A DNA stretch of 32,706 bases from Burkholderiales bacterium (lineage in GTDB: Bacteria; Pseudomonadota; Gammaproteobacteria; Burkholderiales; Thiobacteraceae). The notes beneath the pieces are model-generated. The model saw only the letters and a program-made list of their open reading frames with translations. It searched no databases and was not told the DNA's origin. Location: NCBI GenBank assembly GCA_037478575.1, contig JBBFMG010000001.1, positions 1,787 through 34,492 of the forward strand, given 5' to 3'. Each line of letters opens with the position of its first letter. Within the stretch, counting starts at the first letter, position 1. Of this stretch, positions 6,582 to 18,926 are shown in pieces. The translations under genes and the position numbers were made by a program.

Positions 6582-7694
6582 ATGAGTTTCGAAGCAGTGC
6601 TCCGGTGGGAGGATGGGCAGGCCACACACCGTGAGCGGCTGATCCTGCCGGAATGGGCATTGGCCACCGACGCCACCCTGATCCAGGCGCGTGCGGCCAT
6701 GGCATCCTTGCCGCAGGTCACACGCGACCCGCAGCCCTGGATCACCCCGGTGGGGCTGCCGCCCCACACCCTCCCGCGTCAGGACTTTCGCCTGGGGATC
6801 GCGCCCATTCCGGGGCGCCATTACCCCCGCCAGGCTTTTCACGGCCTGGCGGAGGGCAGGCGGGACTTGCGTCCCTGCCGGCTATTGGCGTGTGACGGGA
6901 CGCGCCTCGTGGTGGATCTCAACCATCCCCTGGCGGGACGTGCCGTGCAACTCACCCTGCAGGCAAGCACCCAGGAAGCCGCGGCCTCGCGCTTCCCGGA
7001 ACTCTTTGCCGGCCCCGGCATGCAGGCCCCTCCCAACCAGGCGGACGCCTGCTACCTTCCCGAGGGCGCCTTAAGCCGCGGAGACGAAGCGCCGGACGCG
7101 GTCTTCTACGGGCGACCGCGGCTCGTCCATCATCTCGACGCGGCTTGCCGCGGCGCGCTGGCACAGCTGTATGCCCGGTTTCTCGAGCCGGGCGCACGCG
7201 TGCTGGACATCATGTCCAGCTGGGAAAGCCATCTGCCCGAAAGCCCGGCCGACCTCAATGTCACGGGGCTGGGCATGAACGCTGCCGAACTGGCAGCCAA
7301 TCCCAGGCTGAGCAAGCGGGTGGTGCACGACCTCAACCGGGTGCCGCAGTTGCCCTTCGCCGACGGCCGCTTTGACCTCGTCCTTTGCACAGCCTCCGTG
7401 GAATACCTGGCAAACCCGGCTGCGGTCTTCGCCGAGGTGCGACGCGTGCTGAGGCCCGGCGGCCAGTTCGTGGTGACGTTTTCCGACCGCTGGTTCCCCA
7501 CCAAGGCGATCCGGGTGTGGGGCGAGCTGCATCCCTTCGAGCGCCTGGGCCTGGTCCGGTGGCTGCTGGAACAGGCCGGCTTCACCGGGCTTCATACCGA
7601 GACCCTGCGGGGTCTGCGTCGCCCGGTGGACGATCCCTACGCCGGCCAGCGCGACTTCAGTGATCCCCTGTTCGCGGCCTGGGGCAGCGCATGA
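6582..7694 (+). CDS. Class I SAM-dependent methyltransferase with N-terminal FKBP/SlyD-like segment
   Basis: VVDLNHPLAG (FKBP C-terminal motif); FYGRPRLVHHLD, VLDIMSSWESH, LPFADGRFDLVLC, RVLRPGG, FSDRWFPTKAI. Confidence 0.8.
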   Translation: MSFEAVLRWEDGQATHRERLILPEWALATDATLIQARAAMASLPQVTRDPQPWITPVGLPPHTLPRQDFRLGIAPIPGRHYPRQAFHGLAEGRRDLRPCRLLACDGTRLVVDLNHPLAGRAVQLTLQASTQEAAASRFPELFAGPGMQAPPNQADACYLPEGALSRGDEAPDAVFYGRPRLVHHLDAACRGALAQLYARFLEPGARVLDIMSSWESHLPESPADLNVTGLGMNAAELAANPRLSKRVVHDLNRVPQLPFADGRFDLVLCTASVEYLANPAAVFAEVRRVLRPGGQFVVTFSDRWFPTKAIRVWGELHPFERLGLVRWLLEQAGFTGLHTETLRGLRRPVDDPYAGQRDFSDPLFAAWGSA

Positions 7695-7812: not shown

Positions 7813-7835
7813 GTCGAGGCTAAAGCCGCTCCCAC
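7813..7835 (-). repeat. Single GTGG/GTAG-type REP-like palindrome
   Basis: Minus strand GTGGGAGCGGCTTTAGCCTCGAC: GTGG tetranucleotide plus imperfect palindrome around TTTA. Confidence 0.55.
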
Positions 7836-7855: not shown

Positions 7856-8229
7856 CCCCGCAGGCGGGGACTTCGAGTCACGCAGCAAGCCGCTTGGTCT
7901 TGTCCCGTTCGATGAGGGCGTAGGCCGAGTGATTGGGAATGGAGGAGAAGTCTCCCGCCGGCGGGCGGAGCAGGGGCCCCGCCTGGGCGGGGATGCGACC
8001 CCGCAGGCGGGGACTTCGAGTCACGCAGCAAGGCGTCGGGTCTTGTCCCGTTCGATCAGGGCGTAGGCCGAGTGGTTGGGAATGGAGGAGAAGTCTCCCG
8101 CCGGCGGGCGGAGCAGGGGCCCCGCGGAAGCGGGGATGCGACCCCGCAGGCGGGGACTTCGAGTCACGCAGCAAGCCGCTTGGTCTTGTCCCGTTCGATC
8201 AGGGCGTAGGCCGAGTGATTGTGAATGGA
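7856..8229. repeat. 143-bp-period tandem repeat (about 2.6 units): 66-bp copy of the folE2 3' end plus a 77-bp palindromic element
   Basis: CCCCGCAGGCGGGGACTTCGAGTCACGCAGCAAG starts at 7856, 7999 and 8142; gene-end copies at 7878-7943, 8021-8086, 8164-8229; elements at 7944-8020 and 8087-8163. Confidence 0.95.
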
Positions 8230-8976
8230 CTCGAAGTTCTCCGCCTCCACCACGTAGGCATCGATGCGCGGATCCCGGTCGAGGGCGGCAGCCACGTCGC
8301 GCACGATGTCTTCCACGAACTTGGGATTGTCGTAGGCCCGTTCCGTGACCCATTTCTCGTCCGGCCGCTTGAGCAGGCCGAAAAGTTCGCAGGATGCCTG
8401 CTCCTCCGCCACACGGATCAGGTCCTCGATCCACACAAAGGTGTTGGCGCGTGCGGTAATGGTGACGTGGGAGCGCTGGTTGTGGGCACCGTAATCGGAA
8501 ATCTTCTTGGAGCAGGGACACAGGCTGGTGACGGGCACCACCACCTTCATGGTCTGGCGGAACGCGCCCTTTTCGATGGCACCGATGAAGGTGACTTCAT
8601 AATCCATGAGGCTCTGCACGCCGGACACGGGCGCGGTCTTGTTGACGAAATAGGGGAAGGTCATTTCGATATAGCCGGATTCCGCCTCCAGGCGCGTGAC
8701 CATCTCCCGCAGCATGTGCTCGAAGTTCTCCACGGAGATCTCCCGCTCGTAGGAGTTGAGGATCTCCAGGAAGCGGGACATGTGGGTGCCCTTGAAGTGA
8801 TGGGGCAGATAGACGTACATGTTGAACACGGCCACGGTGTGCTGGGCACCGGCGCTCTTGTCGGCCACCCGGATGGGATGGCGCACGGACTTGACGCCCA
8901 CCTTGTCGATGGCGATCTGGCGGGTATCGGCCGAGGACTGCACGTCGGCCATGGGCAGGGTTTCGCACTGGTTCAT
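8164..8976 (-). CDS. folE2: GTP cyclohydrolase I type IB (FolE2)
   Basis: [50 protein letters not shown]. Confidence 0.97.
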
Positions 8977-18069: not shown

Positions 18070-18926
18070 GAGACGACAGACCGCCTCGACATAGGCCAGG
18101 CGGTTGGCAGACGACCCGCAAGCTTGGCGCCGTCTCCCTTTGGGCAAGCCGGGCCGACTGACAGCCGCCGACAAACGGAATTATGGACACTGGCCCGTGT
18201 GGGCAAACTCATTGCCCACGAATTCGGGCCCTCATACAGCAACATCCATGTCATGCGCCTGTTGGGCGAACTGGGATTCTCCTGCCAGAAACCGTAGAAG
18301 CGCGCGCTGCAGCGCGACGAGGCCGCCATTGCCGAGGGGAAGGCCAAACGCTGGCCTCTGTTCAAAAAAAACCCGGCGCGAGGGGCGCACCGTTGTCTTC
18401 ATCGACGAATCGGGATTGAGCGAACGGCCTACCCGGGTGCGCACCTGGGCGCCCAAGGGGCAAACCCCGGTGCTGCCATACAGCTTCACCTGGCAGCCGC
18501 TCGCCCCCATTGCCGGCGTGACCTTCTGGAACTTCTGCTTCCGGCTCTTCCCCGGCAGCATCAAGAGCCCACAGCTGGTCGAGTTTGTGAGCGCGCTCAT
18601 GCGCCAAGGGCAGGCTGCTGATCGTCCGGGACGGCTTCAAGGCCCACAAGAACCGGTTGGTGCGCGACTTCGTCGAGTCCCAGGGAGACCACATCGTCCT
18701 TGACTGTCTGCCGGCCTACGCGCCGGAACTCAATCCGGTCGAGTATGTCTGGGGCTATCTCAGGAACCGGGAGATCGCCAACTGGTGCGCCGCGAATCTC
18801 CATGAGGTCGGCGACTTCGCCCGGTGCCGGCTCAAATCCATGCAGCGCCGCCCCAAGCTGGTCTCCGTATTCTGGAAACAGGCGGAATTGCCGATCGGAT
18901 GTCATCTAGTTACGTAACACTCAATA
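18070..18926 (+). mobile_element. Degraded IS630-family element (transposase pseudogene, left end missing)
   Basis: HTH remnants (RQTAST*ARRL; ELWTLARVGKLI...LGFSCQKP*KRA), A8 slippery run 18364-18371, DDE motifs FIDESG, TWAP-G-TP, LPAYAPELNPVEYVW; in-frame stops and frameshifts; ends at TA 18925-18926. Confidence 0.88.

Follow-up and report, generated by a model that had tools for sequence, protein, structure and literature searches.

What process could leave three successive copies of the 3' end of one gene, each in frame and each parted from the next by a hairpin? This question is raised by the window, the whole 32,706-nucleotide stretch of DNA that was analysed from the genome designated G000, in which Tandem Repeats Finder reports a single array (7856-8229; period 143, 2.6 copies, 93% matches, no indels). 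The array includes the end of folE2, an intact GTP cyclohydrolase gene (Pfam PF02649, E 4.7e-102).

Structure of the folE2 array

The initial annotation described 66-bp folE2 end pieces at 8164-8229, 8021-8086, and 7878-7943. Its coordinates, the 143-bp periodicity, the retained frame and TGA stop codon, and the codon differences that it listed are all correct: CAC>CCC (H>P) is common to both extra copies, the middle copy (8021-8086) additionally has AAT>AAC, AAG>CGA (K>R), and CGG>CGC, and the last copy (7878-7943) has CTG>CTC. The 77-bp spacers are structured, as it claimed; both form a long imperfect hairpin that folds far better than shuffled sequences (z -5.1 and -4.7), and they differ only in a 4-nt loop. 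The periodicity was thus right, but the division into a 66-bp end and a 77-bp spacer was not, because the duplication begins 8 bp deeper in folE2, at 8237 (the gene reads ACTTCGAGTCC, the copies ACTTCTCCTCC). The repeat unit therefore consists of 74 bp of gene end and 69 bp of element. Both extra copies also have TCC in place of the GAG of the gene. Moreover, CAC>CCC is not the mere junction change for which it had been taken, but removes a histidine that is present in 17/17 other genomes in which the folE2 end was read. The features of the array are as follows.

8164..8976, minus strand: folE2, GTP cyclohydrolase, the intact host gene (open reading frame and Pfam match)
8164..8237, minus strand: working gene end, 74 bp (sequence; identity step 22 nt from the core at 17/17 sites)
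8237-8228, minus strand: segment matched by the arm, the first 10 nt of the working end, ACTTCGAGTC (sequence)
8156..8165, minus strand: target-complementary arm of element 1, GACTCGAAGT, a perfect 10-nt complement of 8228-8237 that overlaps the stop codon
8095..8163, minus strand: hairpin element 1, 69 bp, with arm, left stem, core, and right stem (fold z -5.1; core family)
8117-8141, minus strand: conserved core of element 1, loop TTCC; the right stem terminates 22 nt from the core
8021..8094, minus strand: extra gene-end copy 2, with GAG>TCC, H>P, two silent changes, and K>R (sequence comparison)
7952..8020, minus strand: hairpin element 2, the same as element 1 save for the loop CCAG; core 7974-7998, arm 8013-8022 (sequence, fold)
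7878..7951, minus strand: extra gene-end copy 3, with GAG>TCC, H>P, and one silent change (sequence comparison)
7856..7879, minus strand: truncated third element, arm and left stem only, without a core (repeat finding; same truncation in relative G004, locus L021)

The array thus ends in an arm and left stem, followed by a REP and a methyltransferase gene. This methyltransferase gene (6582-7694, Pfam) and the REP, of the GTGGGAGCGGCTTTAGCC type (7818-7835), separate the array from an aspartic protease gene, which in most relatives comes immediately after folE2; G004 has the same insert of methyltransferase gene and REP. REPs of the GTGGGAGCGGCTTTAGCC type are abundant in G000 and surround a RAYT gene on contig C50. 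Elsewhere in the window, 18104-18917 resembles by its motifs what is presumably a frameshifted IS630-type transposase gene, for which a Pfam search of one reading frame gave no hit.

An assembly artefact, the possibility left open by the initial annotation, was ruled out. Exact or near-exact contigs cross the copy-specific junctions of the array in runs X1, X4, and X5, which come from three studies (one of them possibly the source sample; among the contig pieces listed, none covers the whole array), and relative G098, assembled in 3 contigs, has arrays of 4 and 3 cores. The second element region is without cover in run X6, which is not evidence for a lower copy number.

The initial annotation suggested that the copies might be displaced or captured alleles. 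For the window alone, three separate captures are not supported: the two extra copies share H>P and GAG>TCC, implying descent, at least in part, from one displaced copy; the displaced folE2 copy of G004 is without the H>P change. Most likely, one displaced copy was later duplicated, and the middle copy and the loop were most likely altered through recombination or local mutation. Because all three window copies are followed by an element arm, the original folE2 end of this host may be lost.

A family of hairpin elements at gene boundaries

The hairpins share a conserved core, TCGCATCCCCGC-N3-5-GCGGGGCCC followed by CTGCTCC, with locus-specific arms. Exact cores occur in 27/401 genomes of the order and in 16/168 genera, at 1-7 per genome, and a reversed control gave 0 matches. 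Among 229 fetched loci, the core lies at gene boundaries next to housekeeping genes. These loci comprise 120 from a species collection (16/64 parts, with ~490 stretches estimated), nearly all titled Betaproteobacteria, and 109 from metagenomes. A nearby duplication accompanies only 62/219 unique cores.

As the initial annotation had proposed, the element is flanked elsewhere by duplicated ends of other conserved genes, at 17 sites overall, including rho and a phage-like gene in G000 itself. On contig C49 of G000 (positions 1-260, L061), a core lies between duplicated rho ends, of which the second is decayed, and the contig breaks within the array; the arm of this element matches 11 nt of the G000 rho gene at the end of contig C296. 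On G000 contig C356 (L062) and on viral contig L038, it is a small gene in a phage-like context whose end the element has duplicated, which implies that it can ride on phages. By its motifs we take this gene to be zinc-finger-like, in a Mu-like phage context; a Pfam search of it gave no hit. The 77-bp element had no match in plasmid and phage record collections. A variant core with a different inner hairpin has the same layout, and the gene end is duplicated likewise (L459).

Copy number at folE2 varies among relatives, as had been suggested: most have no element, G010 has two ends, G004 at least two, and G000 three. The element was found in 3/20 folE2 loci read (G000, G004, and G010), an arm remnant in G001, and empty loci in the rest. 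In genus g2, 11/12 genomes lack the element at folE2.

We conclude that the folE2 repeat is one case of a family of hairpins in Betaproteobacteria that lie between copies of the first or last 60-110 bases of genes. The family, whose members contain no gene and replace the ends of genes, is real and widespread, and it is apparently undescribed; no account of such an element was found in the open-access literature searched. DNA of <150 bp without a gene thus occupies the ends of essential genes (folE2, rho, kdsA, ilvD, nuoA-nuoB) across a bacterial order, and may provide a route for exchange of gene termini between species. The element also accounts for broken contigs and spurious C-terminal ORFs at such loci.

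A fixed boundary 22 nt from the core

With the core in one orientation, the layout is gene, gene end, arm, left stem, core, right stem, second gene end. The sites with this layout include 3' ends of folE2, rho (two sites), ilvD, a LUD-domain gene, ferredoxin (two sites), two phage genes, and a gene that we read as rlmN from its motif; 5' ends of genes in the opposite direction, namely kdsA (two sites), hypD, a DUF4442 gene, an S4-domain gene, and livG/F; and one REP. The core therefore lies on the sense strand at 3' ends and on the antisense strand at 5' ends, and 30 sense 3'-end loci agree with 26 antisense 5'-end loci in the orientation of the core within the layout.

At 17/17 distinct sites, the second gene-end copy begins 22 nt from the core. 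Identity between copies rises from 10/17 sites at +21 to 17/17 at +22 (one locus per site), and across 50 loci (12 others were left out of this profile) from 0.52 to 0.94 at the boundary, with a dip at +26 to +29 and further dips at each third base. Only positions +32 to +72 were used to fit the register, and the step at +22 was therefore not imposed. In folE2, we infer a crossover between 8238 and 8237 at the working end. The boundary is followed by AC in 7/17 sites (background 0.04). The right stem shows no copy of gene sequence from upstream of this boundary (identity 0.16-0.42 at +14 to +19).

The same end point recurs in an inverted doublet of ~175 bp, which has two core types and no gene end, and which ends at +22 in most of the 9 cases listed. 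Such doublets lie at unrelated sites between 3-10-bp repeats (GCC/GCGCC; L169, L165, L200, L202, L234, L460, and L463); in L169 the doublet is in frame inside what we take to be an aminotransferase-like gene.

The left and right stem halves of a given element fold better together than as chimeras (only 1/300 chimera sets fold as well). This folding and the co-variation of left and right stems would be compatible with recombination as a folded single strand. Which strand folds better is independent of transcription, and at 25/30 3'-end loci the transcribed strand is the one that folds less well. Because the layout is also independent of the direction of transcription, the underlying process is most likely at the DNA level.

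These observations bear on a reading at the RNA level, in which the hairpin is kept for a role in the transcript (processing, stability, or translation coupling), the arm pairs with mRNA, and the duplications are by-products. The strong fold is in its favour, and so are ~99 loci at operon junctions such as nuoA-nuoB, often with 108-114-bp units that bring in a fresh ribosome-binding site, where selection on expression may maintain them. The identical layout at sense 3' ends and antisense 5' ends speaks against it, as do the poorer folding of the transcribed strand and the lack of an Rfam match: Rfam 15 covariance models gave a best E of 0.94 in the window and no match on the element in 20 loci, so that a known structured RNA was also rejected. 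Nor does it account for the sharp +22 boundary or for two coding-selected copies (see below), and we consider it improbable. The initial annotation mentions neither the arm nor the fixed 22-nt boundary nor the occurrences at 5' ends; together, these features point to a DNA-level process.

The arm matches the start of the duplicated end

Just before the left stem, the element has an arm complementary to the bases with which the duplicated end begins. Over the 17 sites, the longest perfect complement between arm and target averages 8.6 nt, compared to 4.6 nt in permuted pairings (0/5000 as high), and complements of >=7 nt occur in 32/48 loci versus 12/591 control windows. The complement falls mostly 3' of the boundary (mean 6.0 nt vs 1.9 nt). 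Moreover, the folE2 arm tracks synonymous changes of the allele in its own host, with 9.5 nt of complement to its own allele and 7.8 nt to others (17 loci, 0/5000); with one locus per allele, the corresponding count is 103/5000. The trend for rho arms is in the same direction and is not significant (4 loci, 403/5000). The arm matches the working gene poorly, over 4-5 nt, in L138, L281, L233, and L282, and in the exceptions L104, L082, L138, and L281 either the displaced copy fits better or the fit is poor.

Silent differences between gene-end copies

First and last copies at 44 loci differ by 140 silent and 48 amino-acid-changing codons, where a neutral silent share would be ~0.25; 25 loci lean to silent and 11 to changing differences, with 8 ties. 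This count leaves out 3 loci without a frame and 15 junction-type or REP loci, its loci are not independent (kdsA and folE2 dominate), and L007 entered it as 0:2 in the wrong frame, where counting by hand gives 5 silent and 0 changing differences in 15 codons. Individual silent:changing counts include 8:1 for ilvD, 10:0 for folE2 L224, and 9:0 for kdsA L233. The excess implies that in many loci both copies were once working gene ends of different lineages. The initial claim that the copies were once under coding selection is thus supported for the family, but not by the window alone, where the silent excess gives P 0.05-0.11.

As to which copy is older, a G or C third base, as is typical of the host, is commoner in the displaced copy (67 vs 38 cases), the displaced copy of G010 has a terminator-like downstream flank as in empty relatives, and the displaced end appears, on weak grounds, to be native in G289; dating in G010 favoured neither copy. 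A GA>TC change recurs in displaced folE2 copies of several lineages, for which a single old event with later spread through recombination is as good an explanation as repeated integration.

The copy history bears on plain slippage beside a REP-like palindrome followed by neutral decay; the initial annotation had not expected simple slippage and neutral decay to give this pattern. The weak silent excess in the window, the two damaging changes common to both extra copies, and decayed copies at L027, L134, L160, and L175 would agree with slippage. The 140:48 silent excess and the geometry at 17 sites, with its fixed boundary and target-matching arm, refute it as the origin of the first duplication, and as a full account it is highly improbable. 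Slippage or unequal exchange nevertheless probably explains the step from two to three copies in the window.

A stronger rival is a MITE-like hairpin inserted by an enzyme or by repair, whereby 60-110 bp of target are duplicated on the spot and the arm is copied from the target; no gene end is carried in, and later interspecies recombination gives the silent differences. Restriction-modification inserts provide a precedent for long variable duplications, of ~45-50 bp (PMC2853133). Identical copy pairs exist (L022, L038, the first two copies of L137, and L277), the recurring GA>TC suggests one origin per site, and the doublet form has only 3-10-bp repeats. In G000 and G004, an arm is present again behind the last copy, as duplication that included the arm would give. 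Against this, no arm follows the stop codon in empty relatives, and none is present behind the last copy in G010, L023, or L105. On-the-spot duplication also leaves the complementarity of arms to different host alleles unexplained, and still requires an enzyme that measures 22 nt from the core. We consider it unlikely, if less so than the RNA-level and slippage readings.

Search for the mobilising enzyme

The claim that no recombinase adjoins the element was upheld. The flanks of the 229 loci contained no tyrosine recombinase or Y1 transposase by tblastn with G000 proteins, a search of limited sensitivity, and 142 flanking proteins contained no recombinase by NCBIfam. G000 (96.6% complete) encodes just two tyrosine recombinases of XerC/D size, neither linked to the element, and no reverse transcriptase (PF00078). 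The integron integrase (TIGR02249) was not found in G000 or G001; it is present in 23/27 carriers of the element and 25/33 other genomes, and is thus not enriched. No circle or empty-site junction was found among the contigs of four runs. Likewise, no autonomous or cargo-bearing form was found in 67 metagenome loci without a duplication, where a second copy was sought at a distance, or around the variant core in 9 genomes, and a relaxed viral scan for an autonomous form gave chance matches almost exclusively.

Other candidates in G000 were rejected. Two RAYT-like Y1 proteins and one IS110 at a contig end are unlinked to the element, and a stand-alone GIY-YIG gene has no such hairpins beside it. 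Group I guide and ribosomal-bypass readings were dropped on the grounds of geometry, the occurrence of both orientations, and the lack of a reverse transcriptase.

Proposed mechanism

On balance we favour an account in which a gene-less hairpin of ~70 bp with a target-complementary arm inserts by site-specific strand exchange and brings with it a replacement gene end, and we hold this to be somewhat the more probable case. The simplest mobile unit would be the gene end plus the hairpin, and strand exchange would take place on folded single-stranded DNA with a catalyst encoded elsewhere. The carried end would restore the gene, and the old end would be displaced beyond the hairpin. If the unit were circular single-stranded DNA, base pairing between the arm and the opening 4-12 nt of the carried end would lengthen the stem so that it spans the junction; at folE2, the predicted 143-bp circle would have the right stem joined to ACTTCGAG with the allele of the gene itself. 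The junction would then lie within a helix, double-stranded-like and at a set distance from the core, much as in a folded integron attC site. A core-bound protein could cut one strand at this set distance and exchange it for that of the chromosomal site, with homology of ~6 nt required only 3' of the cut. Homology of this length 3' of the cut corresponds to the polarity and length of the overlap of tyrosine recombinases, and IS200/605-type enzymes read bases 5' of the cut, so that a tyrosine recombinase would fit better than an IS200/605-type enzyme.

A new target could come about if an arm-like sequence within an adjacent gene served as the left end. A finished unit could spread between strains by homologous recombination, with the gene body on one side and the displaced end on the other, which would explain the shared GA>TC change. 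Units would multiply in tandem, and arrays would grow by duplication and recombination. For the window, homologous recombination and tandem multiplication of an existing unit is the most likely source of the three copies.

A more specific version, which we offer tentatively as possible rather than probable, is a DNA-guided insertion system, in which the constant core binds one recombinase, the variable 5-12-nt arm names the target, and the carried end renders insertion harmless to essential genes. If so, a change in the arm alone would retarget insertion with the protein unchanged, and over repeated rounds species would exchange alleles of their gene termini and ribosome-binding regions. With its fixed 22-nt geometry and target-matching arm, the element offers a precise substrate for finding the enzyme; should the arm determine the target, this enzyme would be a DNA-guided recombinase that can be reprogrammed.

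Comparison with known systems

Integrase-mobilised islands and prophages integrate into gene ends (tRNA genes, ssrA, icd) and restore them. The hairpin elements resemble them in having a working end at the gene, a displaced end beyond the insert, a sharp crossover, silent differences, and a damaged displaced copy. Cases of integration into tRNA genes are described (PMC2853133). Unlike islands, the element is a hairpin of ~70 bp without cargo, and no integrase was found among the window ORFs, the 229 loci, or the 142 flanking proteins. Moreover, islands use one fixed attB, whereas a single core is found here at 17 unrelated sites, at both 5' and 3' ends, with a locus-specific arm.

In integrons, attC sites contain RYYYAAC ... 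GTTRRRY boxes and the crossover is at G|TT. No such boxes are present at the boundaries of the 17 sites, where the AC seen at 7/17 is otherwise replaced by variable bases. The attC site is described as a folded single-stranded site of which one strand is exchanged and which replication resolves (PMC3458562). Both attC cassettes and the present elements have an imperfect hairpin right behind a stop codon, with the structure conserved and the sequence variable, and an arm that complements the beginning of the unit, and both occur in tandem arrays. Unlike attC cassettes, the units here are ends of chromosomal genes, and integron integrase is not enriched in their carriers.

Yeast WHO elements at FBA1 also act on a gene end: each event gives the gene a new 3' end and displaces the earlier ends downstream, where they form an array, and spread is proposed to occur via homologous recombination with the displaced end as homology (PMC7282813). 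Gene-end replacement, an array of displaced ends, and a displaced end usable as homology are thus common to both. WHO elements, as presented there, encode their own endonuclease and have one main target, unlike the 69-bp hairpin, which has no coding capacity and many targets. In addition, the arm of the hairpin still matches the restored gene, so that the replacement end is not a resistance allele as in WHO elements.

REP/REPIN sequences and MITEs are similar in being small, gene-less, GC-rich palindromes at gene boundaries, in forming inverted doublets, and in occasional in-frame insertion (PMC2817692, PMC10969869). In contrast to REP/REPIN sequences, the element has neither a GTAG/GTGG head nor a RAYT next to it, is present in few copies per genome, and has allelic gene-end copies of 60-110 bp, and it differs from MITEs in having one fixed end and a 60-110-bp allelic copy in place of terminal inverted repeats with a short fixed duplication. 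The GTGG-type REPs of G000 form a family separate from the hairpin element. Inserts with long target duplications likewise have long variable direct repeats and no mobility gene; their repeats are near-identical and the insert is a restriction-modification unit, unlike the allelic repeats and the hairpin with a target-matching arm found here (PMC2853133).

A diversity-generating retroelement was rejected, as G000 has no PF00078 match and the changes are not A-specific. In the bridge or seek RNA of IS110/IS1111 elements, two guide segments, one for each side of the core, pair with opposite strands of the target. An RNA loop of this kind was rejected because the right stem is no copy of the upstream gene and the sole IS110 gene of G000 is unlinked to the element. 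The core shares a CCCCGC-N4-GCGGGG hairpin and five flanking bases with a CRISPR repeat on G000 contig C243 (100-330); this may reflect chance or common ancestry. A type I-E CRISPR or solitary repeat unit, in which a spacer with a target-matching seed follows the repeat, was rejected because, as read from the sequence, the matching arm lies 13-22 nt beyond the expected 8-nt handle. In its working the element resembles an island that restores its host gene, and possibly an attC cassette, but it fails a defining feature of every known family tested. Should a known integrase, or a transposase that makes long duplications, prove to be its enzyme, the element would fall within known kinds.

Junction subtype and other loci

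A junction subtype lies antisense between coupled operon genes, with 108-114-bp units that supply a new ribosome-binding site and start a short reading frame, ATGAGCAG..., in arrays of 3-4 with varying loops. Examples are G000 contig C39 (950-1500, L058), an array that by motif appears to lie after murG, and L310, L311, L328, and L329; nuoA-nuoB is the site in ~10 loci. In L064, L090, and L198, the element interrupts the start of what by motif is presumably an hsdM-like pseudogene, and this start is not duplicated. In L070, L072, L077, L117, and L237, the element is inserted into other repeat families, part of which is duplicated. In L028 (680-900), a variant core follows a tRNA gene together with a degenerate partial copy of the tRNA, and the arm matches the T-arm region.
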